Source of the DNA: Sphagnum compactum
Taxonomy: Eukaryota
Reading direction: 5' to 3'
Length of the DNA: 64,000 nt
NCBI GenBank assembly: GCA_965153455.1
Contig: OZ234493.1
Span: 32,726,213 to 32,790,212 of the forward strand
The translations under genes were made by a program, and so were the position numbers. Below, in pieces: positions 6,078 to 64,000 of this stretch. How positions within the stretch are numbered: position 1 is the stretch's first letter; each line of letters begins with the position of its first letter. A model generated the notes under the pieces. That model saw nothing but the letters and a program-made list of their open reading frames with translations. It did not search any database and was not told the origin of the DNA.

Positions 6078-6190
6078 GAAGAGCAAAATTATGACAGTTT
6101 TCAGTTGAAGTCACAATTTTAAAGGATTTTCGTTTTGAAACTTGGCAACTGATCACAGCTGCTCCATGTGATATCATTTTTAATTCTTTA

Positions 6191-38611: not shown

Positions 38612-39491
38612 AAAATTGGTTGTCTGTGAATTACACCCAACAAAAAACAGACAAAACAGGTCTTTCTCACAGGGAGCAGTCAAGACCAGAAACCAAACGT
38701 AGTTACAAGAGACATACCAACAATGTGGATGGGAAGGGCGTTGCTGGGAACTATTTTTGTAAGATGGAGAAGACGATGGGGTATGAGTGTTGCTGGACGT
38801 CTTCATAGTTTCTATTATCCAGTTGGACTTGCAGAGGCTTGCACCACAGCAAGCGTCGGGTGTTGCCGACCATTCTTAGGCTTCAGTCGCAACTTCTGTT
38901 ATACATCTCTGTCAATGTATCTTACATATTTGTTTTTTGCATCAAAACATTGTGATGCCTTTCCTCACCTTTCATCACCTGCTTTTTTTAACCTGTTGAT
39001 GAGAATGGAGTGTCTTCATGCAGGATGCTGTAGAGGACTTGGCATCTACTGCTCTCACATCATGTGTGCTCCTGTGCGCCTTGTTGTGCCTCTTGTGGGG
39101 ATATTCAAAATCTTGCAATTAGTCAATTCTTAAAAATTTGGAAAATTCCTCAGCACGGGTTTGAATTAAATCATTGACAAATTAAAATCAGCGTTTCTTT
39201 TCCAGAGACACTTGGCTACACAAAAGTATTGCCCCATATAAAATGGTTTTTGTGAATCGAATCATCAGATTTTGAGGATAAAGTTGTCATATTTGATCCT
39301 AGCAGATCGCCAGAACATAGCAGGATGCGGAAAACTTCCTACTTTTCACTGTGACCGGTAGGCAAATTTGGATCATTCCAATTGTGGATGATCGCCATTG
39401 TGGCGACATCATAAAATTGAAAAAAGAAAACAAACACTGCAAAATGAGCGAGAGCTAGATCTCTAAAAAAAAAGCAAATATATCAAATTTT

Positions 39492-39564
39492 CGATCACGG
39501 TGGGACTCGAACCCACAATCTCCCGCTCCGGAGGCGAGCGCCTTATCCATTAGGCCACGCGACC
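39492..39564 (-). tRNA. tRNA-Arg (anticodon CCG)
   Basis: Minus strand reads GGTCGCGTGGCCTAATGGATAAGGCGCTCGCCTCCGGAGCGGGAGATTGTGGGTTCGAGTCCCACCGTGATCG, a 73-nt cloverleaf with anticodon loop CT-CCG-GA and T-loop TTCGAGT. Confidence 0.95.
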
Positions 39565-41098: not shown

Positions 41099-41497
41099 GA
41101 GATATCCGTAAAGTGAGGAAAAGACAGGGTCAGTACTCCGAGTTTGGTCATACACAGGGTGAGATTTTTTAATCCTACAAAAAAGTACATTAGCATTCAA
41201 GGGGGAGTGAAACTCAGAAAACCATCAATTTTGAGGGTTTTCTGAGTTTCACTCCTGTCTTTCTTTTTTCCTGAGCGCCTCCACTGCTGCTACATAGATT
41301 TTCACTGCTCCTACCTGTACAGCTACTATAATTCCTCTTGAACCTTGTGCATTAAATGCTGAGTTTCAGCATTTCGCACCGGGTTTCAGCATTTCACAGT
41401 GAGATTTAATAAAATTTCCTTACCTTGCGGATACCACTAAAAAAGGGATTAGGGGGTGAAAGACAGGGTGAAGACAGGGTGACTTTACGGATACCTT
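41099..41497. mobile_element. MITE-like element (~400 bp) with central near-perfect hairpin
   Basis: Termini GAGATATCCGTAAAGT / ACTTTACGGATACCTT with TA on both flanks. Internal hairpin GGAGTGAAACTCAGAAAACC...GGTTTTCTGAGTTTCACTCC (41204-41255). Second copy at 6191-6466. Confidence 0.65.
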
Positions 41498-42092
41498 TAT
41501 TGTGTGCAGGAAATCCAGGGCCACAACCAAAGGGCATAACAAATATGCGAGGTTCAAGTTCCTCCATTTCCACATCTGTTGAAAATTTATATTAGGTAGT
41601 CATATTGATGCAAATTCTTACAAACCTCCGCGGAGAAATATTTCAGGAGTGATAGTGCAAATCACCTTAATTTCTTCTCACTTGCCTTCTGATTGCTGGA
41701 GGTGGAACCACACAAAGCCCACCTTCAATTGGTCCTACTTTTCACACTAACTTACTAACGGATTAGTGCTAACATTCTAGAGAGTTGGGTCCTTCAGTTT
41801 ATGATAGACACTTCAGAGGATGGTACTAGTCTGGCATGATAGCTTTCCATGTTGGAACAAATATGGAGTTTGAGGTTGCAGGGAAGCTAAATAGAGATGC
41901 CGTCTGCTCCAACTTTCTGCTCACCCTACACCCACATAAACATCTGCTCATCATCCCCCAGCAATACATATACAATTTATGGACATGTTGCAGAGGCAAA
42001 AATCGTGGTAGTGAAACGTTAAAAGAAGCTCTGTTTATATATATATTTTAAAAACTATATTATTTGTTAATGCTTGAAAAGGTCTTGCGTTT

Positions 42093-42164
42093 GCCTTCGT
42101 AGCATAGTGGTAGTGCGTTCCCTTCGTAAGGGAAAGGTCGTGAGTTCGATCCTCACCGTGGGCT
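42093..42164 (+). tRNA. tRNA-Thr (anticodon CGT)
   Basis: GCCTTCGTAGCATAGTGGTAGTGCGTTCCCTTCGTAAGGGAAAGGTCGTGAGTTCGATCCTCACCGTGGGCT forms a cloverleaf with anticodon loop TT-CGT-AA and one U-U mismatch in the acceptor stem. Followed by an oligo-T Pol III terminator. Confidence 0.93.
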
Positions 42165-43840
42165 TTTTTCATTTTACTCTTTTTGGTTCGTTTTGTATTA
42201 TATCCCCACTAAATTTACAGATCTGCTCACACACTTTTTCTGATGTTAGAACCCACAAGATCAAATCTTTCTGAGAACCCTTGTTCCCTTATTACCACAG
42301 AGGGGATTGCTTCATCTTCCATATTAGGGGTTTTTTCGTTTTTCTTTTTTAATTATATGCATTTCCTTCAATTTTGTGCTTTCCAAAGTTTTTGTGAATT
42401 TTTCCAAATTTCTAGCAAATTTTCCGAATTTCTTGCTCACTATAGTGCAAAAAATTGTTCAGAAAAAAACATGGTTCCCTATTAGTAGGGATCTAATGTG
42501 TGTGTGTGTATTGGAAAGTCATCCATTCCAAGACTATTTTCAACAGGTCAGGTGTTCAAGTTCATCCAATTTTTTCAATGTTGGTGTCAGGGCTTTTTTT
42601 TTTTTTTTTTAAATATTAAATTTCATTTTTGTGGTTTCTAGAGTTTGGCAATTTTTCTGATGGCATTTTATTCTCAGATTTTCACTCAAAAAACGAAAAT
42701 TTCCAAATTTTTCCCTTTTTTTGGGGGGTCATAAAGTGGCAAAAAAATCACCAAAATAATAAATCACTGGTCAGTGTCCAGATGAGGCTAAGCTAGAGAG
42801 AGGTACACCTAATTCCATCACTACACTCTAAACCAACCCTTATGGTGGTCTCATATCACCATAAGATATCACCATGGTTAGGTGATATGGTTCTTTGTGG
42901 GGGGGGGGGATGGGTAACATTCTACAATAATGGATTAATTTACCATAAGGCACCTTTTTTATCACCTAACCAAAGCCATTATGCATGTTTTAAAAAACAG
43001 TCTTTTGCACTAATAAAACCATAATGGATGTTTTTTTTTAAAATTTTTTATACACTGAATAAACAGCAATGGAACTAATTTTGTGTGTATTTTATGGATC
43101 TTTCATAAATAATAGATTTAGGTGATTAGAAGGCTGGTTTTCAAGATGAATTATGTTTAATTTCAAAATTTGAGATGGCAATAAAAAGACATGTTTTCGA
43201 TCTATTGGTAGCACTCTTCTGAATGGTTCGAAGCATCTCAGATGCAATAAAATCAGGTCTATGGGCTCTTTTCAAGTTGAAGTATGTAAAATATGTTTCA
43301 ATACTTTCAGCTGATTTCTAACTCAATGATTACAACTTGGCACCCTAAACCATTCTACTTTGCTGAATCGATGTTTCTCTTCGGTTGCATTCAACTTTTG
43401 AATGTGAAGACAACAGCGCAATAGATAAATTGTTTGCAAGTTCATCATTGAAGAGCTTTACAAACATGGATAGTGTTCTAGTTTGGGGTACACAAATGTT
43501 CATTCCACCATCTCCAAATTCAGACCAAATATGTGAGAGTACTAGCATAGAAAGTCTTTGTCAAAATGAGGAACTTCAATATTCAGCGAAGAGTGAGGGT
43601 CAAAAGGAGCATGATCCAACCTTCATGCATCCTGATGTATAAGGAGAAGATGAAGGTTCAACAAGTTGGGAGGAGCTGAAGCAGTAGTTCAATTCAAGGA
43701 CTCTTGGGCTACACTAGGTGATGTCACCAAACTCACCCCTAAATATTAGAATCATGCCATACACCAGCATTTGGAAATGGTCCACAGTCTTCCAACAATC
43801 CTACACTTGCTGCCCAAAAAAAAAACATTTGACTTACAAG

Positions 43841-45450
43841 ATGCAAGCAAATGGAAATTGGAATGACGAGTCCTTGAAAAGGGCCTTGAAGGCAGTGGAC
43901 ATGGGTTCTGCAGTTAGTATGGCAAGCTGCAGCTTGTCATTTTGGCATTCCAAGGACCTTTTTGAAGGACCATGTCAATGGAAAAACAAAATCTCGGAAG
44001 AGTGGATAGGATGCAATGTTATCTGCATGAGAAAAGAAACACATTGTCAATTGGGTGCTAAAGATGCAACAAATTGGTCTATCTGTGTCAATTCAAACTC
44101 AAGTTTAAAATTGCAGAAATAACACAAGAGAAAGTGACACCATTCACACATGGTGTTCCTACACAAAGCTAGTGAAAATGGTCCAAAATAAAACACCCTC
44201 ATTGACTTTGAGAGTGGCTCAAGGGCTAGAAGTAAGTAAGGTCAGAGGGTTAAATGTGGACAATGTTGCAAGTTTCTATGCAAATCTGGAAAAACTCTAT
44301 GAACTCCATCCCACAATTGGAATTGTGATGAGTCAAGAGCACAAGCTAGATGTGGTGGCCAAGGGCGAATCTTTGCAAAGAAGGGCTCACATTTCGTACA
44401 TTGTTATTCCAAAAGAGCAAAAGTGGATGTCTATGCTCACTTGTATCAATGTTGCATGAATAAACATTCCCAATTTCTACATTTTCAAAGGGAAATGGAT
44501 GTGCAGGAACTACATTAAACAATGCGAAAATGGTGTCACCATGGCCATGCAATCCAAAGCTTGGATGACCAATTATTTGCCAATTGGATTGTTCATTTTG
44601 TGAAGTTGGTGAATAATAACATGGATTACATTTCTCATTTCTCATTCTAATCAACACCTTCTAATCCTTGATGGACATAATTCCCACGTCACTTTGGAGA
44701 CTATCCAGCAAGCTAAGGATGTGGGTTTGGATTTACCCACCTTACCAGCGCACACCTCTCATGAACTCCAACCTTTGGATGTGAATGTCTTCAAGTCATT
44801 CAAAATTGCCTTCCGCAAGTTTCGAGGTATTTGGAGTCTAGCCAACAAGCACAAATTTGCACAAAAGGAGGATTTGGCACAATGGGTTTCATTGACCTTG
44901 CAAAAATCCATGACAAGAAACATCTTGAAGGACTTTAAGAAAACATGAATTTGGCCTTTTGATCTTAATGCAATGGAGGGAAAAATGGGGCCAAGCAACA
45001 TTTTTAGCCATGGACGTCTTTTATCCAGATTCAAATAGCACATCTGATGATGAAACTAACCAATAAACATTACAAGTCAATGTTTTTGAATTTCAAAAGC
45101 CAATGGAGGAGGGCATATTTGAAACACAACAAAAACAATGTCACTACTTCATGGAGGAAATGGAAAATGATGATTGAAACATGTCCAACCACACACCACA
45201 ATCAAGTGTCACTACTTATGTCCAAGATAAAGAGCAACAAGACATCCCCAAGTTTTTGACTATGTCGCAACTAGAAGGCCCAAAAAGAAAGAGGTTAGAT
45301 CATCCCATTCTTGATTATAACAAGTCAATCATCATGACAAGTGAGGAGTACCTACAAGCTTTGGAAGAAAAAATTAAAAGGAAAAAAAAACCTACCAATG
45401 AGTGTGAACAGAAAAGGCAAGAGTTGAAAGAAACTAAAGAAATATGAATG
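43841..45450 (+). pseudogene. Decayed pogo/Tigger-like (HTH_psq + DDE_1) transposase
   Basis: N-terminal GNWNDESLKRALKAV (psq-type HTH), plus LTCINVA, FYIFKGK, MAMQSKAWM, LLILDGHNSHVT and LPAHTSHELQPLDVNVFKSFK, spread over several frames with stops. Element ends not found. Confidence 0.85.
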
Positions 45451-48400
45451 CTCAAAATAGTAGTTGAAAAGGCAGCAAAGCTCGAAAGAGCTCGATAGAA
45501 ATCTATCAAGAAAATTTATAATGAGTAATGGTCATCAAAGAACTTGAAGGCTACTAGTGATTGATAACATGATGCCATCAAATCAAGTGAACCAATCCAA
45601 CAAGAAGGTTATTTAACACCATATTCTGGAACTATCCCATCATGGTGCAAATATAACTAGGCGATTCTAATCAAGAGGAGAAAAATGAAACTACAAAGAA
45701 AAGACACATCAGGGTTGCCACCATTCATAGAGCACCCAACACTTTTTCGACCTTCAACATTTCAAGTTGGAAGACTCTAATGATGTTATTAAATAAGCTT
45801 ACTTACCAAATTGATTAGTTAATATTTTCAATAGGTTAAGTTTTTTAGCACCATAGACAATTTTGCCCCTTCCAAATGCAAATATAAGTTAGTATAAACA
45901 ACTATTAAACCCATACCTCAACAAACAAACAAAAATTGAAAAAAATGCATTGTCATGTTAATAGTACATTTTTCTTATAATGAGGAAGAGATAACTATCT
46001 AGTAGTTAATGTAGTAATTTGCAAATACATTAGAGTTGATGAAGCATTGGATCAATCCAACATTAGTGACCATTACGTAAACCATCAACATTCAATAATA
46101 CATTTACATGCAATGATGTTATAAACTCACAGTCACATTGTATGAAATGTAAGGATGTATAACTTCACAAACAAAAACTACAATGTCAAGTATAAAATTG
46201 TTTGACTTTATTTATAGTTCAACCTTACAATGACCACACTCTCATGGATTTGCATTATCTTGCTCAACCACCATCACCATTTGCCAAACATTTCTACCTA
46301 CACCAAGTTCTCCTACCAATCTTTTCAAAGTGAAACAAATGTGATCAAAAACTGAGATGCACTCATATTTTAATAATACAAATGAAATAATTGAATATTT
46401 TGATTGGGGATCACATTGACTTTGCTATTAAATTTCATTAAAAATTGTTACTTCAAGAATTGTAACCAATATGTTTACAAACAAATAGAAATTACAAAAC
46501 ATTCGCTACAACAAAAAAAATTCTTCCAATATGTGTTTAGCAATACTAGCATTATGAACATATATACCCGTTTTGTAACATTATTGATACATAGAACAAT
46601 TGTGTAGTATTCGGCATGTCTATTCAAGCCATGTTCATTCTTAAATCCTTGCAATTAATGTATCACCTTAAAAAATAGACATAGGAGTCTAGGTTTGGTT
46701 GATTTGATGCAACACACCTCCACAATTCTAGGATGATTACACTTGTCAAATCATCTACATGGTCCTATACGTCTCTTAATAGTTCTTTGTGATAGCCCCA
46801 AACACTTTTTAACAATCCTTTCACTAGAAGAATTCATGTCCTATGCAACCACTTCTTAAACAACTAGTGATCCTCAATAACTAAACAAACAACTATGAAC
46901 CATATTTGCAACTATCTAGCTTATGTGGCAATATGTGTAGTTACAATCTAATGGTTATTACAACTAATGGATTAATGGAATGAATGTTTAACATAATGTG
47001 GGCATGTATTCAATTTTATATACTCTCAAACTAAATATGTAAAGTTGTTAAAGTGATTACCAACAATAATAACTATGACATTATGATATTGCATATGATA
47101 TTAAAAGAATTTGGTATTTTATGTAACTACCTACTTTTAAAATTATAATATTATTTAAGATCTATGATGTGGAAAATTAATGTCTATCACTTTACATTTA
47201 ACATGTGCAAATTTGCCACATGGTGCAAATATGTAATCAAATTAACATAATTGTAATCATAAGTTAATTGTATATTGTGAATTATATCGAAAATATAAAT
47301 AATAATTTTACATCATACATCATAAAATATAATTTAACATGTACATTCATAAAATTTTTCATAAGTCATTTTGTAATGGCAATAGTCATGTATGCATTAC
47401 ATGAAAACACATGTGTATATGAAGTTCAAATGGAATCATTTTTTAGGGATCTATAAAAACAATTAATTTTAGTTTTTTTATTTCTACAAATGGCATGCAT
47501 ACATGTATAAAGGTTTAATTAATGATAATTTTAAAAAATCTAAATTAAATGTGATATTGATTTGTTTGTTTATAGTTTAAAATTTAAAGTGAAATTTTTG
47601 AAATGAATATTTAAATTGATATAATATATTTACATCTGAAATTTTTGAAAATTAAATTTTTTATAGAAGTATGGAATTAAAAATATGGATTAAATTAAAT
47701 TTAAAATATTAATTAAATTTATACTTTATGGCCCAAAATTATTAAATCAGTTTGACTTAATTATTTAAAAATACATATATATAATTAAAATGAATTAAAA
47801 ATTAAAAATTAAATTTATTTTATAACTAAAAATATGGTAAATTATTAGTTAAATTTAAATATTTTTTTTTAAATGACAGTATTTTATTGTCATGATTCAT
47901 CATTTTTTTGATGAAAAAGCTTAATTATAAAAGAATTTTTTGTTAAAAATAGCTTGGGTGATATATTTCAATTTACATTAAAATTTTATTTCAACAAAAA
48001 AATAATTAACCCGTTTAAAAATATGTTCTTGTAATGCATTTTTTAACTTGAATGTCAATGGATACAATTTTAAATCCATTTCATGTTTATAAATAGTGAT
48101 GGAATGCAATTATGCACCATCTAACATAATTTGGACAATGATAATGTGTGTGCAAAGTTTGCACATTTGCACTATAAGTTGCAATTTAATTGGTTAGTGT
48201 TACTAAAATCAGCTGACATACAAATATTTTGGAACCCATAACTAAACAATTAGTTGCAAAAGACATCAACAATTTCATTTGTTAATGGATGAATGAAAAA
48301 TCATACAACATTAGGTTTGTCAATGGATGAATAAAAAATCACACAAGCATTAGGTTCATCAATGGAAAAACTTGTTTAGTAGTTATTCTAGTAATCATTT

Positions 48401-50974
48401 AGTTGCCATTTACAAATTGGGCACATTGTAGTTACAGTTACACACAAGTACTACCTTGTGTCAATGTGAATTGTCACATAGTTATGAGTTAATAGCCAAT
48501 AATATTTTCCACCACACTTGTAGTTGCAAGAGAATTGCAACAAATATCAACAAAGTTCATTATTGATAGATGAATGGACAAAAAACAATGTTAGCATGAC
48601 ATTATGATGATAGTTTCAATTTAGTTTCCTTAGAATTGCACAATAATTATTCATGCATAATTGCAACTAAATTGCATAATTTGCATACATATATGGTTCC
48701 ATATGATGAATTGCATGTGTTGCAACTCATGTAACTCATTTGATAACACTCATGTCGTAGAAATACATTGAATTGCAATGAAATTGCAAGTGGTCATTAA
48801 TTTAAAAACCCAATTGCAAGGCTAGTTGCATGACCAATTTCAAATCATCCTATTTCTCATACTATGAAGGAATGAATCATGAATGAGAACCCCACTCAAA
48901 GGCCATCATGTTTCATTATGAATGACATCCATCGACAACATCATGCAACATAATACAATTCTCAACTTCAATCCTTAGTTTTTTTGGGGTTCATTTTAAT
49001 TGTCATCTTTTCATTTTATTTTTTTCTCTTTGATTTTTTTAAATTTTCTTTTATACCAATATTTTTTGTTTTATCTTATAGCCATGTGTGGGAGGACACA
49101 AATGTGTCAATGTTTTTGTGTGTTTGGGATGTTTTAAAGAATTGGAAAAAGATGATCATGTCCAAGGTGCCAAAGGTTAGGGATAAAAAGGAAGTACCAT
49201 AGTACCTTTACCTATCGAAATTTTCAGAATTAAAAAATCAAGTGCCGAAGTTAAGATTTTAAATTTAATTAATTATTCAGCATTCTATTGCCAAAATGGT
49301 AAAGGTACTACGGTAATGTTCTAAGCTTTGCAACACACCATGTAGAAGTCTATTGAATATGAAGAAATTGTGGATGAATTTGTCCAACACACAAGGGAAA
49401 AACTAATGATGACCAAAGTGGAGGATTTTGGAGGGGAAACATTCCACAATTACTTTTGGACCTATTATGATAAGTTTGGTAAGAACAACTAATCACCATT
49501 GTTTAAAAAATTCAAACATAAGTTTTACACATTTACAAAATATTAGACATGGATATTGCATCAAATAACATACAAAGATCATTGGCATTGACCTTGTGCA
49601 TAAAATTGTGTTCATATATTGCTTGTAATGTGTTCCCTAGTTTGAACATATATATATTGCATGATCTTAACATTATACTTGTCGTACCTTATGGTTACAA
49701 CACTTGTGGAATGATTGTTGTGAACCTCAAAACTTAACATAGGCATTACATTGCTGGTTAGATGGTTTTTTTAAACCCCACTTCAATGCCACATACATTC
49801 ATGTTTGCATACCCAAGTCATTGGTATTATTATAATCATCCATATGACTAGTACAACTATAAGAATTTACATGTGTTATGTGATGCATAATATATGTTCA
49901 AGAACATAAGTATTGCCATTTTGAGGTCTTATCTTGTTGGTTATCTTGTTTATATGCTTGATAAATGCACATTTTCAATAAACCTTAAGCATTATTAAGG
50001 ATGATCAAAGTACATCTGCAATATGTACTATGTTATCCATGTTAAACCATTTTTATATATGTCAATGTGAACATAGGTATTGCAAATGACATATTCATAA
50101 ATAATGTATCATTTCCATTATTACCTATGGTTTGGGTATTGTTTGAATTATAATATTTGTATCAATTGATATTGCGAGCATGATTGTACTTTGACATAAC
50201 AATACCTAAATTCAATGCTTTGAATGTAGTTTTTCAATTGATAAAATACGTTAAAAAAATAGTAACCTTATTGATTACAAATTCACAAATCACAATACCT
50301 ATGTTGTGACTTTCAAACATTAAATGAAATCTTGTAATATGCAACCATCCTTTTTACAACGACATGCAACTAAGTGTTGGTTGCGACTATATTTGATTTT
50401 TTTTGCAACTGATTATTAATGTTCATACTTTATATGGTGAAATGTGACTATATTGGGACTACCATGTGACTATTGAAATATCCATCTTTTCATTTGGATG
50501 ATTGTTGGGATTGTTTTCATCCAAAAATAGGTTCATATGTCCATTAGTTATATTTGGGATCAAAATTAGTCGCAACCATATGCCATATACATAGTTCTTT
50601 CATGTACACTAAGGTGTATTATAACTAAATTTGGGATACAATTATGTGAAGTATTAGGGTTGCATTAAAGGTATATTTAAAAAGTTTATTAGGAGTATAT
50701 TATACGTTCATTATGGATAGATTAATCATATATTGTGCATATTAAGGGTTTTATGAATGTGGTTTTTGTGGTGAATTTTTGCCATTTGGCGACATTGTTT
50801 ATTTAAAATTAAACCTTTGTTTTGGTTTTGATATTCTCAACAACCTTCTCACCTTTCTTTGTCCTTGACACAACAAATTTATTGTGACACCCTTGTTCCA
50901 TAACAAAACAAATACAATGATCACAATGTGAAATGCAATGGAAGATGCAATTCATGCCCATTACACCCAATTCT

Positions 50975-52503
50975 TTTGAAATTGCAATTGGAATTTCAAA
51001 CAAGTTACATGAACTTGAAATCAATTCATATTTCAATTTTGAGAATTGTTATTTATATATATATATATATATATATACTTTAATTTTGAATGTTTTTATT
51101 TGAATATGAAATTTCATATTTCAATTCGGAAAATTATTATTTCAATCTAAAAATTTGATTTTCAATTATGTAAATTATTATATGAATTTGAATTTTTATT
51201 CTAAAAACTGTTATTTAAATTCTGAAAATTATTATTTGAATAAATAAATATATATATGTATATATATTTCAATCCGCAAATGGTTATTTTCATTCTGAGA
51301 ATTAATATTTTAATTTTAAAAATGCTATTTGGATCTGAAAATTCATTTTTCTATTCTAAAATTTGATATTCAATTCTAAAAATTCAAATTTCAGTTATGA
51401 AATTTTTTATTGGAATTCAACAATTGTTCAATGAATCTGAAATTGAAACTTGTATTCTAGAAATTTTATTGTTTAAATTAAAAATTTGATATTTGAATTC
51501 TGAAAATTATGATTCAAATCTGAAAATTACCCCATATTTTGATTTTTAAAAATTCAAATAACAATTTCCAAAATGGAAATATTAAGTTTCAATTTCAAAT
51601 AAAACATTTTGAATTCAAATAATTTTTTAAGGATTCAAATACAAATTTTAGAACTCAAATAACTAGTTTTGAATTCAACTGAAAATTCTCAGAATTGATA
51701 TATCAATTTTTAGATTCAAATAATGATTTTCAAAATTCAAAAAACAAAATTTAGATTCAAATAATAATTTTCAATATTCAATTACAGTTTTTTAAATTCA
51801 AGTAATAATTTTATGAATTTAAATATGAATTTTCAAAATCCAATAACATTTTTTGGAATTGAAATATCACTTTTCAGTTGCAACTAGCAATTTTTAGAAT
51901 TAAAATATCAAATTTCATATTCAAATAAATTTTATTGGGATTTAAATATCAATTTTCAGACTCAAATAAATATTTTCTGAAATAAAATATCAAATTTGAG
52001 ATTCAAATATTGTTTTTTAGAATTCAAATGTCATTTTTCAAATTTTAAATATCAATTTTGAGATTGAAATATTAATTTTTGAATACCAAAATAAAAAGCA
52101 GATTTCCAATATGAATTTTTGAATCCAAATCATTATCTTTACATTTGAAATATCAATTTTGAGATTCAATTTTTTTTTAAAGAATTAAAATATCAATTTT
52201 CATAACGAAATGACAATTTTTGGATTGAATTATCACTTTATGGTGGAAATAATAATTTTCGAAATTCAAATATCAAATCTTATATTCAAATAACAACTTT
52301 TAGGATTGAAATATTAATTTTCAAAAATCAAATATCAAGTTGATATTCAAATAACACTTTTCAGAGTTGAAATATCTATTTTCAGAATTTAAATTTGTCA
52401 AATTTCATATTCAATTACAATTTTCAGAATTGATATATTAATTTTCAGAACTTAAATGTCAAGTCCATCTTCAAACAATTTTTTTTAGATTTTAAATATC
52501 ACT
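50975..52503. repeat. Fold-back array of ~21-bp AT-rich units (consensus ~ATTTTCAGAATTCAAATATCA) that switches orientation at ~51530
   Basis: Left part carries TGATATTTGAATTCTGAAAAT-type units, right part carries the reverse complements. (TA)n tracts at ~51054-51077 and ~52505-52526. Confidence 0.75.
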
Positions 52504-55500
52504 TATATATATATATATATATATATTGTATAATGTATATTAAAATAACAATTGATACTTCAAATAATTGTTATGTGGAAAGGTTATGTGAGGTGGGAGG
52601 ATTAGCATATATAATTTACAACATGAAAAAAAAGAATAGAAGATATGGGATAAAAAATTTAGTCGTAAATTAATATGCGACTAATTGCAATTAAGATTTT
52701 ATCCCATATTTTTTGTCCTCCATTTCAGTCTTGTAAATTATATAAGGAAATGCATTTGGAAGATTGAAAATACACATTTGTTCGGATGAGCCTATCATAA
52801 AAGGATAAACCTAAAATAAAATAAGAAAATCTATCTAATTACCTACTTCCCTACTTCCCTACCAATTTAATATATATTTGTAAAATTTTAAGTAATATGC
52901 CATGTGGCAAATTGTTATTATGCCATGTGTCACAATCTATAACCATCCAAAATGGATGATGCAGATTTAATTTTTTTATCAATTTTTTTTCAAAATTCAA
53001 TTGTCATGCCACATGGCAAAAATCAATTGAGCCACATGGATCAATTCAAAATCATTAAACATGGACGATTGAGATTATACATTTCATAGGAAAATGATTT
53101 ATTTATTATTTAATTTCAATTTTCAAAATGCACTAATTATGCCACATGGCAATAAAGGGTTGGTGACCATTTTAGTTGCAATTTTTAGCAAATAATCACA
53201 AGTTGCCATTATATAATCAATGAATGAAGACGTATTTGTTGACCATATGTTTCATCCATGGACTGTGATGACAGAAGGAATGATGTCATCATTTGTGATT
53301 ATATGTTGGATGCAATTTCACTTATGCAACTAAATTTTTTTAAATTATATAGATGGGGTACAATTAATTTATAGTTGCAAAGTTTAGTTGAGAATTTATA
53401 CTTTTCTTCTTGTGTCATCATTCTTGCCGGAGGAGGAGTTGTTTTGCACATCGTTGTAATATCTATGTTGGGAGTATTCAACCATGCAATACATGGGTTC
53501 AATGTGTGAACATACTTTTTGAACTAAGAAAATATCTAAACATTGGGTACAAGTTAAGTATTATGAAAATTTCACATGTAATCCTACCACTTAGCAATAT
53601 CAAAGACATGTGCAATTCATTTACATACCTTTAATGTGAGGATGAACATTCATTGCAACATTTATGCTTTGAAACATGAAAAAAACAATTAGTTAGTAAA
53701 ATAGTAATATCATTGTTGAGTATGAAAAAGATGAAAATGCATCACATTGAATCCAACTATTTTTTTATTGTGAACTTTTGTTTTACTTTGCATTCTCTTA
53801 GCAACTTCCTTTCATCACCTTCCTCTCCCTATTGCAATGTCCTTTATTTTTTCCTTGGCCTTCTCTTTGGCATGTTCCTTACCTTTTTCTTTGACCACCT
53901 CTTTGGCCTTTTCCTTGGCCTTGTCCACCTTTTAAAATGAAGTTATTGGTGTGGATTGTGAAAAACATAACTTGGTTTCCCTCTCTTGCTAGGCGATACA
54001 ACAATTCCTCCATTATAATTTCTTTTTCACCATCATCATTACCTTCACCATTTTCACCTTCTTCACCCTCTTTGCTCTCATTCTCAAAAATTACATTTAT
54101 TCACATCTCCCTATAATGTCTTGTGGCTTCCAATGCACCAAAGTAATGCCTCCCTGCATTCATATTTCGTTCCTTCTTCTTTATTCCAACAAATGCATCA
54201 ATGCAATTCTTTCTTCATTCCTCTTTCACACCCCACCTCATAGTCCTACAATGAACATGTGTTAAAATTAAAATTGAAAAACACTGAACTTAAAGGTCAA
54301 AGTAAAAGTGTTCACAAAAAAATTATCATTTGATTGATGTGATACTTCTCTAATTTCAAGATTGTCTTCCTCTCCTTAGCAAACCTAGGGTGCTTAAATT
54401 CATATGCCCAAGCCTCTTTCATGTATGGTTGAAAGTGTTTGGAGGCATGGACAATGTTATTGACCTTATCATTGTCCTCTAACTTGAGAATGTTTTTCCA
54501 TGAGACCTCCCCCCACTCCATGCATATATGTCTAAGAATTCCTCTAAATCATCCTCCAATACTAATGCCAAATGAGGTGGTCTCACATTAGGGTTCTTCT
54601 TACTCCATTCCAACAAGAAAAGCCCATTCCTTGTTGTTTTCTTCTTGCAGTCAATTTCCATTCTTTCCACTCTTTTTTTTGCTTGAAAATGAACATGGCC
54701 TTGAACATGTTAATTCATCTTGGAATGTTCTTATTTATAGGGACCGATTGGGTTGGTGGATGGTTTGCCCCTTTCTCCTAAGATGCCACATGTGGTGAAG
54801 ATCTTTCATATGGTGTTACAAAACAATTTTTTTTCTCCATCGAACCATGTTACACAAAGAACACACGATCCACACCCACTCCTTCCCAACTTCTTCCCTT
54901 TCTTCCAATGATGCCCTCTTTAGCTATTGGGTAGTAGATATCTATAAAAATTAAATATCAAGCCAATTAGACCCAACGTAGGTATTGCAAGAAACATGGA
55001 AACAAACTACCAAACAATTGTACCAATGACATTAGGAATGCATTTACAACCCCAATATGTGACAAATATATAATCTCCAAACATGGGTATTGCATTTTGG
55101 GTCTTATTACATAAACGTTAAACACAGGTAGTATAGGATTGGGTCAACATATTTACAAAATCTAAATGAAGGGAACATAAGTATTGCACCAAAATTATTA
55201 AAACATTAATATTGTATTTACAAACCATAACCGTAGCCTTGATATTGTCATAGATGTTTGTTTCCACTATGCATGATATAAAATCTTTTGAATATGGTAG
55301 TCATTGGTTTCACATACAAAAGACAAAGTCAAACATGGGCATTTACTGTAAAAATAAAAATAAAATCATCAAATCAATGGTGAAGTTTAGTATGGGTTGA
55401 AATTGAAGTTCATGCTCACAATAAAACCCTTTACAACAACACTTATAGATTTTGCAATGACCATAATCTCTACAAGTTTAAGAGCCAAAGGCTGTGTTTG

Positions 55501-56347
55501 TTATGCCTCGTTTACCTTTCCATAACTTCATTATGATTGACAAAAAAAATGTTATATCACGGTGTCATCCATTGGATTTATAATACCCATGCTAGAACCC
55601 AAAATAACATATTATGTCTCATTCCCAAAATAAATTGTAATGAAAAAAAATGTCATGTTAATAAAACAACGAGGTGAATTTCACCAAAAAAATAAAAAGA
55701 AACAAACATAGAGATATAACAAAATATTGCACTTTCACCTTAGACAAAATCTGATACAATATTACATTTTCAAATAAAAAATACCGAAAAAAATTAGTTA
55801 TGTTTTAGGTGGTGGTCATAGTCATGTTTATTGATAGAACAAAGGAATGAATATGATGTTCTATACAAACACATGGTAAGTTTATGTCTTTGCTTGATCA
55901 ACCTTTACATACACCATTGAACCAAACTTGCAAAAATACAAATTAATGATGATGCACAAACAACAAAGTTGGACCTTCACTATTCCTTACCATAAAAAAA
56001 TTCATTCAACAAAACCTTGGATTAGCCTTAATGAAAAATCAATTAAGTTCAATTGATCCACCTTTTTTGTTGCAAGTTTTGAGGAAGGCAATGAAGATGT
56101 AAAGCTCTTCACATTCCCCCCTTTGAACAAAATATAAAACTAACACAAAAAGGAAACGACCCATTTCTCTACTGTAAGTAACAATGAAAGTGATGAAAAT
56201 GGGGGGTGAACTTCCCTTTAATTAACATGTTAAAAGAAAAAAAGGAAATCAAAGAAAGAAAACAAAAACATTGCAACAAAAAAAACAAGTAGATGGGGCA
56301 AATATATATTTATTACAACTTGTGAAAAACTTGCTTCGGAGATGGTA

Positions 56348-57155
56348 TGACGCGCTCCTAAGTCCCTTGTTGAACCCACTTGAGCGTCCAACTATATGGA
56401 GTTGCAGAAAGTTGGGACTTGGGGGCCGCTCCCGACTTCCAACACTAAAGAAGGGTAGAGAAGTCCCGGGATTAGACTAGGAAGAGGACAAATGTTTCAC
56501 CTATTCAAATCTGCATCAAAACCAACCCCAAGTTGGTTAGAACTCATTCTGCACCCTTTTGGTGTTGGGACAAGCCACGGGCTAACTCGGACTCACTTGA
56601 CTCACCACGGCCCGAATTCGGGGGAAGCCACCACCTTCCCCCATATAGTATACTCTGCTGCTCTCCGCTGAGGCTACATCCGAATGGCACTTTTTCCCGG
56701 GACTCCCAAGTTGGAGTCCCGAAACTATCCCGGGTTGGAGTCCCGGGACTTCGGGAGCTCGTATTTCCCGGCTCCAACCTCCGATCGGAGTGAGGTCTAA
56801 ACCAAAGTTGTAGCCCTCTTCGAGAGCTTTCCAACACCATGTCGCACTCCTTCAGGCGACGTCGGGAAAGGGTCGATTCCCGACAATTAGTGGTCGGGAG
56901 TCAAACTACCAGTTTGACTCCCGGCCCTTCTTTTGCCCATAACTTCGGCTGCAGATGTCCAAATCGCCAATGCGAGGGCATTTTAGACATCTACACTTCA
57001 AGACCTTTCCATTGATATAAAGAACACCTCAAGGAGAGGTGTTTTGACCCCCTGTAATCGCTTCTGAGTTTTCGGGAGTCCCGGAGGACTCCAACTTCCC
57101 ACTTTTGGGAGTGTGGGCTTCACCCTCACACTTAGCCTAAAGTGGGGTTGCAACA
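56348..57155. mobile_element. Solo LTR (808 bp), same family as 32507-33596, opposite orientation
   Basis: TG...CA termini (TGACGCGC...GGGGTTGCAACA) and perfect 5-bp TSD TGGTA (56343-56347, 57156-57160). Shared blocks include CAGATGTCCAAAT, CGAGAGCTTTCCAAC and TATAGTATACTCTG. Confidence 0.92.
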
Positions 57156-58984
57156 TGGTAGGTGTTTTGAAATTGAAAACAATCAAGTGATGGTGATCGA
57201 GTTTTGAAGATGGTGACATCAAATAACAAGCTTTTAAAAACAAACTAAAAAAAAATGAAAGATGAAACAAAGATCACAAATAATAATAATAATTAGTTTA
57301 AAATTAGAAGAAAAAAACTTGGCGGTAGTTTAAAAGGAAAAATAAACAAGAAAAATAAAATTAGGAAGGAGGCAAATATTTAGGACAACTTCCATAAAAA
57401 GAAGAGCTAAAACAAATAGTGATTTCCAAAATTAAATAGTGAAGGGTTCCCTCCCATTACTCCAAAAGGGGTGAGGAGCTTCATATGCTTGCCTCCATCC
57501 ACCATGGATGGGACTCGGGAATAGTAACACCCTTGAAGGAGGGCGTTACTAGAATAAAGGGATTGTGCAAGGTGGTATTTTAAGGGCGTTACCGAATGTA
57601 AAATAACTACCAAAAACAAACTTCACAAAATTTATAGTCACAATATAACAAAACAAAACAAAAATTAACAATAGATCTTCATATTCCAAATTGAAAATGA
57701 TGTTGAAAGAAGAAAGTGTTTGATCAAGATTCTAAGGCACGAAACATTGCTAAATTTGTTTTGATGTATTTTTGGTTTGTTACAATAGCAAAGTTGCAAC
57801 ACATGACCTATTCTTTTGTGTTGATTGAAAACTTTCACAACAATTTATATTTGTTATTGTAATGTAAATTACAAAAAATAAAATAAAATTTGCTTTCATT
57901 AATGTGAAGAATGAAAAATGTCTAAACATAATGAATTTTTTAATCAAGTTTAATTACTTGGAGACCTACTATTACTTATTTGTATCCCACATAATCAAAC
58001 ACCTAACCAATTTTTCATAGGAAATAGACAACATAACAAATCCTTAAAAACCAATGAACAACATGAACATCATGTCTATGTATTCACACTTTTGTAATCC
58101 AACCAAAATCTACATAGATCTTCCACTTTGCTCGAAGAGGTTCTCTTAATAGATGTACAACCAAATAAAACATAAATAAAACATTTGCAAATCTACTAGA
58201 GCAATGGAATGAAAAAACATTTCCCAAAAAAAATTAAAAAGAATTACAACCATGGATTGTTGAAATGACTTACAACTCCATTATTTTATATCAACAAAAA
58301 AATGGTCACCTCAAGGTTTCAAACCCAAACCTCCTTACAAATGTTGGAATGTTATTTATTCATCTCCTTTGCATCTAAAATGTGGTAGTAGAATGTTTTT
58401 TTTTATGGAGAGGTTTTATGTAGTAGCATACTCAAATTGATTTATGTCAACACAATGTTCAAGAAGGTTCGTGTAGACCATGTCAATAGCACTCCCACTT
58501 AGTAAACAAAGAGGCAAAACATGCTAAAAGAATAGGCATTATGAAATCATTCGTATTGTAAATTGAACAACTACAATTAGTTAACTCTACAATCCAATGG
58601 TCAAAAATTTAGACCTACTTTCAATTTCACGATACTGTAGAGAAAAAAAAAATGCCTTGAAAAACTCATAAATGATTGCTTAATGGACTTAAAATGACAT
58701 ATTTTGGGGACATTATTTAAATCAAACTTTACTATGATAATATAATGCAACATCTTTGAGAGTCAAAAGGATTTTTTAAATCTTTTTTTAAATTTACAAA
58801 TGGAATATATTATGGAAATATTTTGGAATAAACAGTCATTAACCAAGGAGGTGAGTGTGGGTCCTAACAATGTGATTACAATCAATTCTCATGTTTTGTA
58901 GGTGGGAGTCCCATGGTATTGATTTGGTATTATTGTAATTATGTGTGATGGATTTTATAGGTTGTTTGTTTGTTGTTAATGTAA

Positions 58985-60670
58985 GTGAGACTATTGCTGA
59001 TGATGTTGATTATGAAAAACCAAATAGTCACTATGGAAACAACTTTTTTTTTAATGGGCGTTTGTGATGTAGTTAGGTTTGTTCAAGAGGATTATTTTGA
59101 TCCTTGTGCTTATGGAAACGATGGTGATGAGGTTATGAATTTTGATATTGATGGTGATGATGATAAGGAGATCAATTGTTGCTTCAAGGATTTGGATTTT
59201 CAAAAGTTGGAAAATATGAAGGTCGGTGGACATCATCACAATATTCACTTCAAAATCTAGGCTACCAATGCTTTGCATGCTTGGTGGCAATATAAATAGG
59301 ATATTTTGAAATTAAATACAAAATTACATGCTTTTAAACCAAAGCTACTTATCGATTATCTTTCAAATGTTTTGTTGTAAATGGCAAAGAATAAGAACAA
59401 GTTTTCTCCCCCTACTAGGTTTTCCTTCTTATCCTTTGTTTTTATTTCATTTGTTGGTTATGTTATTTGAATTAGGTTTTTAAAAAAAATGACGGTCTTA
59501 TTTTTATAGCTTGTTTGTAGCATAGTTAGTCTATTTTGGGTGCTTGATAGAGTGATATGATTAAGAGAGGACGCACAACTACAGAGATTGGCAAGTTGGG
59601 GTCGAAATTCAATATATACATTGATGATGTTTTTGAAAAAGTAAAATTGGCTGCAAATGAAGCCATTAACATATCCATAGTTGTTGGGCTTGGGAGATGT
59701 ATTACACAATTAAATGTTCTTTCTTTGTCAAAAGAGAGACTCATGTTGAATCAAGAAAATGACAAGTAACTTCACCTCAAGGTATCAACCTTTGTTTTGG
59801 GTAATATTGCATTTGGAGCTTTGGTATTCATGGAGCCCAAGACTTAAAGAGGTTCAATGATATTGACTTCTCTTGCACAAGGATGAATTTGGTCCATTTT
59901 TAAGGTGATGTTTTTAATTTATCTCTTGTCTTAAGTTTGGGTTTTTATTGTTGGTGTTGAAATATGTTAGTCATTCTTGTCATTTGTTATGGAAGTTTGT
60001 CAAAAAAAAAAAATTAATATATTACTAGCAAGGTTAGTTTAAAAAATTGGAAATTTGATTGTTGATCATTATGTTGTGGAACACCATTAGCCAATAGTGA
60101 ATTGTTTCATCATAGATGTCATTGAAATGTACAAAGTGATGATTTTGTATTGGCCTACAATTGATGATGTGCTTTCACCTCATCCATTTTTTTTGACCTT
60201 CAAGGCAAAATGCTTTAATATAGAGCAAATTTGGTTCATGAAAACACTAGTGGGTAGTCTAACATTATTGATTAGTTGAATAAGAAGTTGACAAATGATA
60301 TTCTAGCCCTGAAAAAAAATGCATTATTCACAAGATTGGGTAGTGCATTGCAAGTTCAAGAATGGTAAAAGCTTTAGTACCAGTGGAATAGGGGATCAAA
60401 ATTTTAAACCATCACAATGCAAAAAGCTATGTAAAGCAAATCTACTAATAGTTAGGTGTTGCTCAAATTTTCAATCTTTTTTGTTTTTTTCAAATTTTTG
60501 TGTTGTTTGATGAATTGTTGTTTGCAGTGCTAAATATGATTAGGTGGATAACAACATTCAGGATTATGGCTTACAATGAATTGTTTTTTGTGGATTGAAC
60601 ATAAATTACCCTCTTACATATGAGGAGGCCATTACTCATGAACAGAATATGCACAAAAAGCTTAAAATAA
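58985..60670 (+). pseudogene. Decayed intron-containing DUF3504/Crypton-like tyrosine recombinase gene
   Basis: Stitched translation: NIHFKI*ATNALHAWW...LIDYLSNVLL*MAKNKNKFSPPT|S-IVSLFWVLDRVI (GT-AG intron 59419-59520) ... FNIYIDDVFEKVKLAANEAINISIVVGLGRCITQLNVLSLSKERLML ... TSPQGINLCFG*YCIWSFGIHGAQDL ... VIEMYKVM..WP...HPFFLTFK...IWFMKTLVGSLTL ... IIHKIG*CIASSRMVKALVPVE*GIKILNHHNAKSY|AKYD. Motif order is colinear with the DUF3504/Crypton recombinase as I recall it. Confidence 0.7.
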
Positions 60671-61266
60671 TTCATTTTTTCATTTTTGGTCTTTTGGTTA
60701 TGGTTTTTTGTTTTGAATTCCAAGTTTTAGTGCTCTTTTTTTGCTTTTTTGTAGTCTATTTTTCCATTAGGGTTTCCTAGATATTAGGTAATGATTTTTT
60801 TACATTGTATGTTCTACCAAGGTTTCCATTTTTTGTTGTAGGTTTTTCTCCTTCATTTCTTTGGTATTGTTGGTTGCATGTTTAATTATTGATTTTGCTT
60901 TGCTTGTTTATTTTCATTTGCAACTCTTTGATGCATCTGCAATCTAGTTCAATCACAATAGATGCAATGCATCCATCCAATTAAAAACAATTGGCACCAA
61001 GCTCAAGTATGCAACTTGAAAAATCATCTAAGTCTACAACAATTACATGTTTGTAGAATGTTAATTTTCAAAAAATCAAATGCCCAATTATGATATACCA
61101 CCATGGTTATCAAAACCTCAAATACTCAATTCCGACATATAACCATGATTCTCAATTTTTGGAGAAAGTCAAATTAACATAGGCGGTCGTGTAAGGTAAT
61201 TCCCAAAATAAGGGGCCTAGGAAAAGGCGGTAGCTAAGTCCGGCATTGCATTTTGGAAATGTCCTC

Positions 61267-61604
61267 AACCCATGGGTATTACCCATAGTAAAGTACACGA
61301 CTAAGGTTTTCATAACCTAAACATAAATAGATCACAAGGTGTAGGAGGTGGAGGGTTAATACATCTATTCCTTAAGAGAACCCATGGGTATTACCCATAG
61401 TAAAGTACATGGCTAAGGTTTTCATAACCTAAAACATAAGTAGATCACAAGGTGTAGGAGGTGGAGGGTTAATACATCTATTCCTTAAGAGAACCCATGG
61501 GTATTACCCATAGTAAAGTACACGGCCAAGGTTTTCATAACCTAAAACATAAGTAGATCACAAGGTGTAGGAGGTGGAGGGTTAATACATCTACTCCTAA
61601 AGAG
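61267..61604. repeat. Near-perfect tandem repeat, 112-113 bp x3
   Basis: Unit AACCCATGGGTATTACCCATAGTAAAGTACA...GTGTAGGAGGTGGAGGGTTAATACATCTA starts at 61267, 61379 and 61492 with only a few differences. Confidence 0.95.
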
Positions 61605-63240
61605 AGTGAGAGAGATCTTACACCAATAAATAGCAACAATAGTGGAAGATCTTATAGGCATAAGATCACTCCCTCTTAAGGAATAGGCTTAATATCCCTC
61701 CTCTTTTCTAGTAGGGATATTCGCAGACATAAGGGGCCCTCCAAATATGCTAAGAAAATTTCTCCAAGTGATTCATTCTTTTTCATTTGCCCCCATCCAT
61801 TCCCCACCCCAAAAACTTATTAGGGGGGTGAAGGGGGTGGGCTCAAAGCATTGAGTTCCCAAGTTCCTGACATGTTCCCCAAAGAGTTCCCAATAGCACC
61901 TCACTTTTATCCCATATTATGCTTTGGCAAATGTGTTGTCCTCCTTTCATGTATTATAGTATAGCTGGGCCAAAGGGAAGGAACTCAATACTTCAAAATG
62001 GGACCTTTTATTGGGGGGGGGGGAGCTTCCTTACCACAATTTCTTCTCTTTCTTTTTTTTTTTGAATGATGGGGGCAAATCAAATTGGCTCATTGCCAAA
62101 AGAAGAACATTGAAGTGGGGAGGCACCTCATCTAGTTAATGCAAAGCACAATAAAGTCAAATAGAATTTCTACTTGCATCCAACCCTTGAAACATTGAGA
62201 ACCCACAAAAATCTTTCAAAAGTATCATTCTATATATCTCTAATATATGACTAGGTAGATCAAAATAATAACCCTTACTATTAGGTTTCAAAAATATGAT
62301 CTCCCAATAGATTCTCCCCACCCCAAAAACAATGAACAACAAACATGAGTTTGTTTTAATTTATGAGCCAAATTTTCAAAAAAATAAAAATAAAATTAAT
62401 TTAAATAAATTTAAATAAATTTTTTAAATTTTTTTTATAAAAAAACTACAAGATATTTTCCTTCTCCCTTCTTTCTTGCCACTGAGAAAATTTGTTATTG
62501 TTTTTATTGTTGTGGCAAAAGCCTAGATTTCATGATTGCTGCCTATTGCTGTTGCTGATGGCTTCTTTTTTATGCAATTTTTATTAATTTCTCAGGAATT
62601 TGCCCCCCCCCGCTCTTGCTAGCTTAGCCTTTCCAAGAGCATAAGATTTGGGTGAAGAACTGGGCCATGGTTTTGTTTTGCATTTTGAGGAAGTGGGAAG
62701 TGGGTCTTGTGTTGTTGTTGTTGTTGTTGGTAGTGGAGTGGTGAGCAAAAAATTGGTGTGAAAGTTTTGTTGTTGGTGCTGTTTGGGTTTGTTGGGTTTG
62801 TGAGGTTTGTGGTTGTTGTTGGATGGATCTGGTGGGATGTGTAGTGCAAGAAGAGATGAACACAAAGCCATGAGCTAACTGAGCATATTGAGTGATGAGA
62901 TGCTGCTGGTGTTGAAGAAGAAGAAGAAGAAGAAGAAGAAGATCTGTTTAGGCAGTCTGCACACTCTGGTGCACATTTTTGGGGTGTTTTTCTATGAGAT
63001 TCTTTCACTTCCTATCCTCCCATCTAGGTTGGATTCGACAGAGTGCAAAAGTGCTTTGTCTATGAGCTGCTGCTGCCGTTTCTCTGAAGATTTTATGTGG
63101 GAAGAAGTTAACAACTAGGGTTTGATGATGGGTCTCCCTCTTTGGGATTTTGTGATGTAAATGGGTGGCTAAATCTTTGGTTCCTTTTGTTTGTGGTGGC
63201 AGGTGTTGTGTGGGTGGTTCAAGGTGTGAACATTGGACAC

Positions 63241-64000
63241 ATGTCGATGTTGGTATGGAATGGATCAGGTGCACGAGGAGATTCCTTAGAGATTGTGGAA
63301 CATGAGAGGTCGGTATCAACTAAAACAAGGCCAACAACATCAAGCCTCCTCCCTGTGGAGTTGCCCTACTGCCCCGTATGCTGGGATGGTTATGACCATG
63401 GGAAACGAATGCCTCGGGTTCTTCACTGTGGGCACACCATATGTCAGGTACTTTTTTCCTTTTATCATTACTGATTGAAATCATGCCTTCTGGAATGTAG
63501 TGTTTATGAGCTGCAAGTATCTAGTATTTGCCTCATGTGCTTGCAGTATAGATGTAGAGAGATCTAGATTCTCTTTCCAAAAGAAATCAAATCTCGTGAT
63601 GGGTATATGGGAAACTAGTAATGCATTTGTGAAAGGCAGTTAGAAGATTGTGCAGTGAGTGTCCAATGGTGCAAGCTCAGGTAATGGATGTACAGCATGC
63701 TGAATCTCTTCAAAAGAACATGCCCTTAAAAAAACTTTCAGTGTTGTTTCTCTCTTCTCTTCATCTTTCCTTGTTTAGTTATCTTCTGGGTTTCTGTTTT
63801 CCCCTTAAATTCTTCTTGGTTTCCTTTGTCATCTCCATCTCTTTTATGTTTTGTTGAGTTAGCCAGTGTCATGGCTGAGTGTTCCTGTTACTGCCAGGTT
63901 TGAGACAGAAACTCAACTCAACCAAGTGACCCCTGCTGTAGTCAAGTTGAATACCAAAAAGTATCCATCTAAGATATGCATCTTTCTTTTCCAGGATTGC
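63241..64000 (+). CDS. 5' part of a RING-HC (C3HC4) zinc-finger protein, probable E3 ligase; runs off the window
   Basis: Exon 63241-63447 encodes LPYCPVCWDGYDHGKRMPRVLHCGHTICQ. After GT-AG intron 63448-63994 the frame continues DC (63995-64000), completing CGHTICQDC. Confidence 0.85.

Follow-up and report, generated by a model that had tools for sequence, protein, structure and literature searches.

Does the degenerate coding sequence near the end of the stretch analysed here descend from a tyrosine-recombinase transposon living in a land plant, or from an ordinary gene of the moss that has died? The stretch, called the window below, comprises 64,000 nucleotides (nt) of Sphagnum compactum (contig OZ234493.1, assembly GCA_965153455.1) and is plant nuclear DNA; coordinates are window positions. 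A preliminary description, made from the letters of the window, had joined six peptide blocks across three introns into a Crypton-like recombinase with a DUF3504 domain. Cryptons and DUF3504 proteins have been reported from animals, fungi and stramenopiles (Kojima and Jurka 2011, PMC3212892; Krysinska et al. 2026, PMC13465315), and the portions of these two papers available to us make no mention of a land-plant Crypton family. The one plant species in the accessible part of PMC3212892 is Chlamydomonas, in the species abbreviations of a figure legend. A table in a 2015 survey, as given in the accessible part of PMC4438587, records Crypton, with no detail, as one of the superfamilies found in every group studied, including land plants. 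We found no description of a bryophyte Crypton or DUF3504 family in the literature searched, although Repbase, Dfam or the supplements of papers might contain one, and the intact relatives of the window sequence are annotated merely as hypothetical or uncharacterised proteins.

The sequence in question died long ago; it is one copy of a repeated gene with introns that encoded a predicted tyrosine recombinase of the DUF3504/Crypton type. In our opinion it is best read as the relic of a Crypton-type transposon, a reading to which we assign a probability of roughly 0.7. Its status as a DNA transposon, proposed in the preliminary description, is supported by the many dispersed copies of the family, which have a sharply defined 3′ end and flanks unrelated to one another; from these we infer transposition itself.

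Homology and family assignment

When four relatives (P0033, P0050, P0018 and P0049) are aligned to the window by tblastn, they give a single collinear chain on the plus strand, from 59081 to 60669, with expectation values (E) of 1e-13 to 2e-19. The chain switches frame repeatedly and includes stops; together with the family alignment, it bears out the proposal of a decayed relic. The same four queries find no second copy of the recombinase relic in the window. Of 1.84 billion proteins searched by phmmer with the frame-1 read-through, 32 match at E ≤ 1e-3, six of them at E ≤ 1e-10 and the best at 6.3e-15. Most are short open reading frames (ORFs) from other decayed copies; two are long, namely P0018 (357 residues) and P0003 (257 residues). 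A word-index protein search with the same read-through yielded 6416 candidates, none of which scored.

The intact relatives are stand-alone proteins of 357–489 residues. The relatives recovered by further searches include P0033 (489 residues), which is without intron 1; P0050 (425 residues), which has a complete C-terminus; P0049 and P0051, which read through intron 1; the hypothetical proteins P0018 and P0052 of Riccia sorocarpa; and P0053, from locus LOC112277641 of Physcomitrium patens. Three relatives exceed the curated Pfam cut-off of 29.7 bits for PF12012 (DUF3504): P0050 with 32.7, P0018 with 31.7 and P0003 with 30.1 bits, over profile positions 2–160 of 162. P0049, P0051, P0052 and P0053, whose models are cut or mis-spliced, have no DUF3504 match. 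P0018 also matches Phage_integrase weakly, in the C-terminal portion of that profile, and several relatives match the QRICH1 domain weakly at their N-terminal domain. Within the window, DUF3504 is the only Pfam family matched by the ORF at 60091–60276 (E 0.14, 12.6 bits, profile positions 106–152 of 162).

Comparison of profiles extends this likeness over both domains. The program hhalign aligns profile A8, built from 19 bryophyte sequences, with P0054, an undoubted member (DUF3504 116.6 bits, QRICH1 54 bits, Phage_integrase 24.6 bits), at 98.3% probability; the 307 aligned columns (E 2.4e-14) stretch from the N-terminal domain through the catalytic tyrosine. A protein search with profile A1 retrieves nine proteins, two of them from outside the bryophytes: P0054 and a frog KRAB-DUF3504 protein. 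Structure points the same way. The clusters of the ESM Atlas nearest to P0018 are DUF3504/Phage_integrase/QRICH1 proteins of cnidarians and molluscs (score 0.97, TM 0.71), and the top Foldseek rows for the P0018 model are all Cre, topoisomerase I or QRICH1. The family has a tyrosine-recombinase catalytic fold, and its best profile and fold matches are to DUF3504/QRICH1. The homology proposed in the preliminary description is therefore supported alike by the Pfam matches of intact relatives, by profile-profile comparison and by fold.

The only sequence match of A8 in the PDB is to VANC21, an anti-silencing protein encoded by Arabidopsis VANDAL21 (9lnj_A), in three collinear motifs. We attribute it to chance because its E is 0.89 and the wide fold search lends it no support, VANC21 not being among the 50 matches listed. 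According to the accessible part of a 2026 paper (PMC13547354), VANC is related to MAIN.

Gene model and active site

The gene model was set by alignment of the window with ten other copies. The unit and its parts lie on the plus strand as follows.

~57520–61065, plus strand: whole relic, truncated, with an internal deletion and many mutations; the complete repeat unit measures at least 5.7 kb
57520–58363, plus strand: 5′ non-coding part of the unit, start approximate; 57582–58363 is covered by blastn to L013/15, L017/18 and L020
58559–58646, plus strand: small leftover of a ~1.8-kb non-coding segment (L017 3000–4820 in other copies)
58948–60670, plus strand: recombinase gene with four exons, the single gene of the unit (family alignment)
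58948–59418, plus strand: exon 1, with the conserved ATG, an acidic N-terminal region, the start of a QRICH1/SAM-like DNA-binding domain, and blocks 1 and 2; frameshift near 59050, stops at 59257 (TGG to TAG), ~59293 and 59378 (CAA to TAA)
59419–59520, plus strand: intron 1, 102 nt, GT..AG, between the halves of a phase-2 codon (AG/C, Ser)
59521–59904, plus strand: exon 2, with blocks 3 and 4 and the first catalytic Arg codon; interrupted by several stops and two or more frameshifts
59905–~60021, plus strand: intron 2; donor GTGATG intact, acceptor (TAG/G in paralogs) lost in the window, with an A-run inserted
60022–60436, plus strand: exon 3, with the KNW lysine, block 5 (VNCYI..VWFMK..VG), K-x-x-R and the G-H region; at least three frameshifts
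60437–60534, plus strand: intron 3, 98 nt, both splice sites mutated in the window copy (paralogs: AAG/GTAAGT ... TTAAG/TATGAT)
60535–60670, plus strand: exon 4, starting with the TAT codon of the predicted nucleophile Tyr, followed by the C-terminal helix 'PLTYEEA..HEQNMHKKLK'; stops at ~60541 and ~60577
60671–61065, plus strand: 3′ non-coding part, cut short in the window; other copies continue for ~780 bp to a common end

All six peptide blocks are present at the places originally given for them, as three-frame translations of 58900–60720 confirm. The start had been put at 58985; in the family alignment the conserved ATG is at 58948 instead. The limits of intron 1 proved exact. Its donor GT is intact in all eight copies that span it and its acceptor AG in seven of 11, three others having AA and one a gap. 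This intron position is read through in P0049, P0050 and P0051 and the intron is missing from P0033; intron 1 is therefore real and was removable in a relative. For intron 2, placed at about 59905–59994, the donor at 59905 stands and the acceptor does not, the ancestral one being at ~60021; an ORF that reads through this intron is present in the paralog protein P0009. Intron 3 likewise exists, with limits that the family alignment moves from about 60430–60527 to 60437–60534. The introns are thus real, as had been claimed, and common to the paralogous copies. Introns are also a feature of fungal Cryptons. P0049 reads through the site of moss intron 2 and ends soon afterwards, at '...SVKDF'; because of this read-through, intron positions seem to differ between lineages of the family.

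The protein of the family ancestor was ~470–520 residues long; its acidic N-terminus was followed by a DNA-binding domain of the QRICH1/SAM-like kind and then by the catalytic domain. The active site of the family, read from the alignment with P0054 and from positions in P0018, consists of an Arg in 'IRGxxE', a conserved Lys in 'NKN', K-x-x-R, G-H, and a Tyr nine residues past G-H. The catalytic set had been given as R...H-x-x-R...H...Y; this has to be corrected to R...K-x-x-R...H...Y. A Lys occupies the same H-x-x-R His position in type IB topoisomerases. The ancestor and the intact relatives hold R, K-x-x-R, G-H and Y. In the window, the first Arg codon, ancestrally CGT, is now CAT (His, 'FGIHG'), the second is TAG ('HKIG*'), from CGR, and G-H has become N-H; the Tyr codon is intact. 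Because both Arg are lost and G-H is changed, the window copy is, as read from these codons, a dead descendant and not a working member of the family. At the first Arg position, CGT is kept in L020, the other copies having CAT, TGT or TAT.

Decay of the copies

About 13 in-frame stops and at least six frameshifts interrupt the window copy. Three of its splice sites are ruined, among them those of intron 3, changed from GTAAGT to CAAATC and from AG to AA. Missing as well are ~1.6–1.8 kb of non-coding DNA on the 5′ side and the terminal ~780 bp of the unit. Judged by its sequence, this copy cannot work, and it has no function of its own. Decay by stops and frame changes had been recognised from the outset; the frameshifts are more numerous than was then allowed for.

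Among the stops that were checked, those private to the window are the one at the W codon (59257), a Tyr codon ('FG*YC') and the codon in 'VE*GI'. The first agrees with the original suggestion of TAG for W, since other copies have TGG. The stop at 59378, ancestrally CAA, is also found in two paralogs. Arg codons have changed independently across the copies, from CGN to TGN, CAN or TAG, with CGT surviving in L020 and CGA in L005. In a majority consensus of the copies every exon can be read in a single frame; against P0033 this consensus scores 295 bits, versus 174 for the window.

The copies have a G+C content of 29–34% and observed/expected CpG ratios of 0.13–0.38. Private substitutions show no raw excess of C>T: there are 399 C>T/G>A changes versus 374 T>C/A>G, with 467 transversions. 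Deamination is pointed to only by the rate per site, at a G+C content of ~31%, and by the low CpG ratio.

Repeat unit and its copies

Metagenome contigs scanned with two conserved peptides gave 320 pattern-matched stretches, 25 of which encode relatives. With the window, these form 11 locus clusters; ten are paralogs, besides the cluster of the locus shared with a related genome (L001–L004). Identity among the paralogs is 66–86% (median 70.6%), and blastn finds DNA homology of the window to 24 other loci, at up to 65–88%. This homology passes through the introns, covering 58883–60717 and 60843–61065 and, in some copies, also 57582–58363 and 58559–58646. Since the introns are common to the copies, the unit was copied as DNA.

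Among the better copies the unit corresponds to L017 171–8947 minus two private insertions, ~5.7 kb in all. The homology is confined to this unit, and the flanks of the copies are unrelated. At the 3′ side it ends at a common point in five paralogs, within ~10–15 bp; when 5′ ends are aligned, it begins perhaps from ~57520, amid short palindromes of the GGGCATTACC..GGTAATGCCC type, and some copies are truncated at different 5′ points. The ends have no inverted repeats, as had been expected: a repeat search of L013 4300–11400 and L017 1–9800 finds neither long terminal direct repeats nor long terminal inverted ones. No other ORF of at least 130 residues is common to the copies in the 25 loci, a result that decay limits. 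In the upstream ~1.8 kb, all six frames are equally conserved between copies, for which reason we regard this segment as non-coding.

Some 80 bp short of the common 3′ end, L017 (8801–8874), L013, L009, L007 and L024 share a conserved palindrome whose 34-nt arms are separated by a 6-nt spacer. It could be a site of recombination or of termination. The window copy is truncated before it.

The shared locus in a related genome

Four of the sequences, L001–L004, represent the same locus in a related genome; they are syntenic with window 39119–43908 and 59440–64000. Their identity to the window is 82–87% in the relic and 95–98% in the neighbouring gene. Because the same relic stands at the syntenic locus, it is older than the split from the related genome and was already dead at that time. 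The family itself is present in mosses and in the liverwort Riccia; of the two origins first proposed, ancient or by horizontal acquisition, this favours an old age.

The two loci also differ in structure. In L001–L004, segment 43915–45578 is inverted, bears a pogo-type DDE_1 relic and directly abuts 59440, and window 45579–59439 (~13.9 kb, AT-rich) is absent, so that the recombinase relic has lost its 5′ half there. The arrangement suggests that the two lineages differ by an inversion together with a deletion or insertion, one breakpoint falling inside intron 1.

Weighing of the explanations

If the unit was a Crypton-type transposon, its enzyme would have excised it as a circle by recombining the ends, as the tyrosine-recombinase family and the Crypton model suggest, and the circle would have been reinserted by a second recombination through a covalent 3′-phosphotyrosine link, a process that would need neither DNA synthesis nor terminal inverted repeats. 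The copies did spread as DNA, introns included, to at least 11 loci and then decayed with marked loss of CpG.

A number of observations weigh against this reading. As regards the unit, its 5′ end is blurred and rests on three or four copies; at ~3.4 kb, its 5′ non-coding part is long by the standard of Cryptons; and in the alignments of paralog ends no target-site signature or flanking repeat is readable at the unit ends, so that the short flanking direct repeats anticipated by the preliminary description are not readable either. No empty site or insertion polymorphism was seen, the one shared locus (L001–L004) carrying the relic as well. The search for other copies did reveal the 11 clusters, but in all 25 related loci the ORF is broken. 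Even the majority consensus retains nine stops in its aligned parts, because CpG decay has run in parallel across the copies. As regards the assignment, a Pfam scan of the three per-frame read-throughs, with X at stops, finds no family, and the DUF3504 match of the window itself, at E 0.14, is not significant. The PF12012 scores of the relatives barely exceed the cut-off, that of P0033 (28.2 bits) lying barely under it. The AlphaFold model of P0018 is middling, with a predicted local distance difference test (pLDDT) of 64.6, and its Foldseek comparison yields no PDB match at E ≤ 1e-3, the best being 1.9e-2. The family has Lys for the His of the canonical H-x-x-R, and it is assigned by profile and fold, no tree setting it among the named Cryptons. 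Intact relatives, moreover, are few per genome where the genome is named (two in Riccia, one locus in Physcomitrium), a low copy number that would also fit a host gene family, and in the LOC112277641 protein Lys stands in place of the first catalytic Arg, the whole K-x-x-R/His/Tyr part being missing.

The most serious competitor, which we nevertheless hold to be unlikely, is that the relic is a pseudogene of a host gene family: an old, domesticated, Crypton-derived DUF3504 gene would have been multiplied, along with its promoter and flanks, by segmental or whole-genome duplication, and most of the copies would then have decayed, with no transposition in the moss lineage. The annotation of the Riccia and Physcomitrium relatives as ordinary low-copy genes agrees with this, as does the Physcomitrium protein just described, which some models join to Coilin_N. 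So do the missing target-site signature and the several kb of upstream non-coding DNA taken in by the homology, as if a gene had been duplicated with its promoter. Such duplications sit poorly, however, with eleven separate loci that have unrelated flanks and a common sharp 3′ end, with the truncation of some copies at different 5′ points, and with the death of every copy; the strong CpG loss and AT-richness resemble those of silenced repeats, and the ancestor possessed a full catalytic set that a domesticated DNA-binding derivative could dispense with. Much less probable still is an origin from some larger element, or one of another kind, in which the tyrosine-recombinase gene was just one component, be it a retroelement of the DIRS/Ngaro/PAT type or a giant element carried by a recombinase. 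In its favour, the 5′ boundary of the unit is loose, and an unrelated repeat of ~700 bp (56430–57156) lies upstream of the relic in three of the 11 loci; this repeat was rejected as part of the element, since it also stands alone at 32690–33596. Against it, no reverse transcriptase or other long ORF occurs in the 25 loci, the 1.8 kb upstream shows the same conservation in all six frames, terminal repeats of the inverted or split direct kind are lacking, the intact relatives stand alone at 357–489 residues, and the best profile and fold matches are DUF3504/QRICH1.

Chance resemblance, in which AT-rich junk happens to yield recombinase-like peptides, would account for the empty per-frame Pfam scan and word-index search. 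It is refuted by the 32 phmmer matches reaching E 6.3e-15, by the collinear tblastn chains and by DNA homology of 65–88% to 24 loci. We therefore retain the Crypton-type transposon relic as the preferred reading.

Coilin-like models of Physcomitrium and a tentative history

Three UniProt models of LOC112277641 (P0060, P0061 and P0063; 562–799 residues) consist of Coilin_N followed by the Crypton-like N-terminal domain and a catalytically void recombinase domain. Coilin_N scores 40.8–46.7 bits in the Physcomitrium models versus a cut-off of 32.9. Newer RefSeq models divide the locus into separate parts, 'coilin-like' among them. The Coilin_N fusion could represent domestication of a Crypton in a plant.

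On a broader view, which we put forward tentatively and consider rather unlikely, bryophytes would possess an old CryptonA-like (DUF3504) lineage with K-x-x-R that was amplified in mosses and then died there, leaving intact genes elsewhere, at least one form of which is without intron 1. The lineage may have been domesticated in Physcomitrium as the catalytically dead Coilin_N fusion, a plant parallel to ZMYM, QRICH1 and KCTD1 of animals. Passage between fungus and plant would be possible, because the nearest relatives described outside animals, the Glomhoppers, reside in arbuscular-mycorrhizal fungi, and these fungi colonise the thalli of bryophytes.

Other features of the window

The remainder of the window holds two tRNA genes and the following coding features.

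4404–6107, minus strand: ORF of a major facilitator superfamily (MFS) sugar transporter
10224–11255, minus strand: decayed DNA-transposon gene with a weak HTH_Tnp_4 match at 10920–11252 (E 0.0024, 17.9 bits, cut-off 27), which we take to be Harbinger-like
37844–38218: eIF2-gamma-like EF-Tu domain
43718–44948, plus strand: decayed pogo/Tigger-type DDE_1 transposon gene (DDE_1 domain 44613–44945, E 3.5e-11)
63112–63471: RING-finger exon

An unrelated repeat of ~700–800 bp occurs at 56348–57156 and at 32690–33596, on opposite strands and with 72–88% identity; its ORFs have no Pfam match. The same repeat is found ~1.1 kb upstream of the relic in L009/L010, where it is reversed, and in L022/L023. 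A tandem array of four 113-nt units lies at 61207–61657, with fewer units in L002–L004.

Comparison with known systems

Curation of a bryophyte family would close a gap in the known hosts of tyrosine-recombinase DNA transposons and offer plant repeat libraries a model for as yet unclassified sequence. It would also be material for asking whether plants, like animals, have made host regulators of recombinases, the Physcomitrium Coilin_N fusion being a candidate, and whether the family was inherited or exchanged with mycorrhizal fungi.

CryptonA elements of animals and Glomhoppers of Glomeromycota encode the same two-domain protein, in which a QRICH1/SAM-like N-terminal domain is followed by DUF3504 and the catalytic C-terminus. 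The likeness to the CryptonA type is expressed in the profile-profile E of 2.4e-14 to P0054, and the single-gene unit without terminal repeats is common to both. Like the moss copies, Glomhoppers are intron-bearing and exist mostly in truncated or decayed form, according to the accessible part of PMC13465315. The bryophyte family differs in that its host is a land plant, its proteins are ~22% identical to P0054, Lys replaces His of H-x-x-R, and the 5′ non-coding part is long. By domains and profile the CryptonA type is its closest known kin, and the family may belong inside CryptonA, beside the Glomhoppers or apart from both.

CryptonF elements of fungi (such as Crypton-Cn1) and the CryptonS elements of oomycetes and diatoms, which we compare by description only, are likewise tyrosine-recombinase DNA elements with spliceosomal introns and no terminal inverted repeats. 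CryptonF proteins bear a GCR1_C domain, according to the legend of Fig. 1 in PMC3212892, whereas Pfam finds no GCR1_C match in the bryophyte relatives. DIRS, Ngaro and PAT retrotransposons belong to the same recombinase superfamily, and the ALOG domains of plants derive from recombinases of this type, the previously known route of entry into plant genes (Iyer and Aravind 2012, PMC3537659, as far as accessible). The moss unit differs from such retrotransposons in being without reverse transcriptase and RNase H genes, in the 25 loci, and without terminal repeats; the family also differs from ALOG proteins in having no ALOG_dom match, one ALOG plus Phage_integrase cluster of the Atlas being ranked tenth.

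Finally, the domesticated DUF3504 genes of animals (QRICH1, ZMYM2/3/4, KCTD1 and KIAA1958) are conserved genes, whereas the window copy and its ten paralogous loci are dead repeats. The bryophyte ancestor differs from these genes in a further respect, namely that its catalytic residues were kept.

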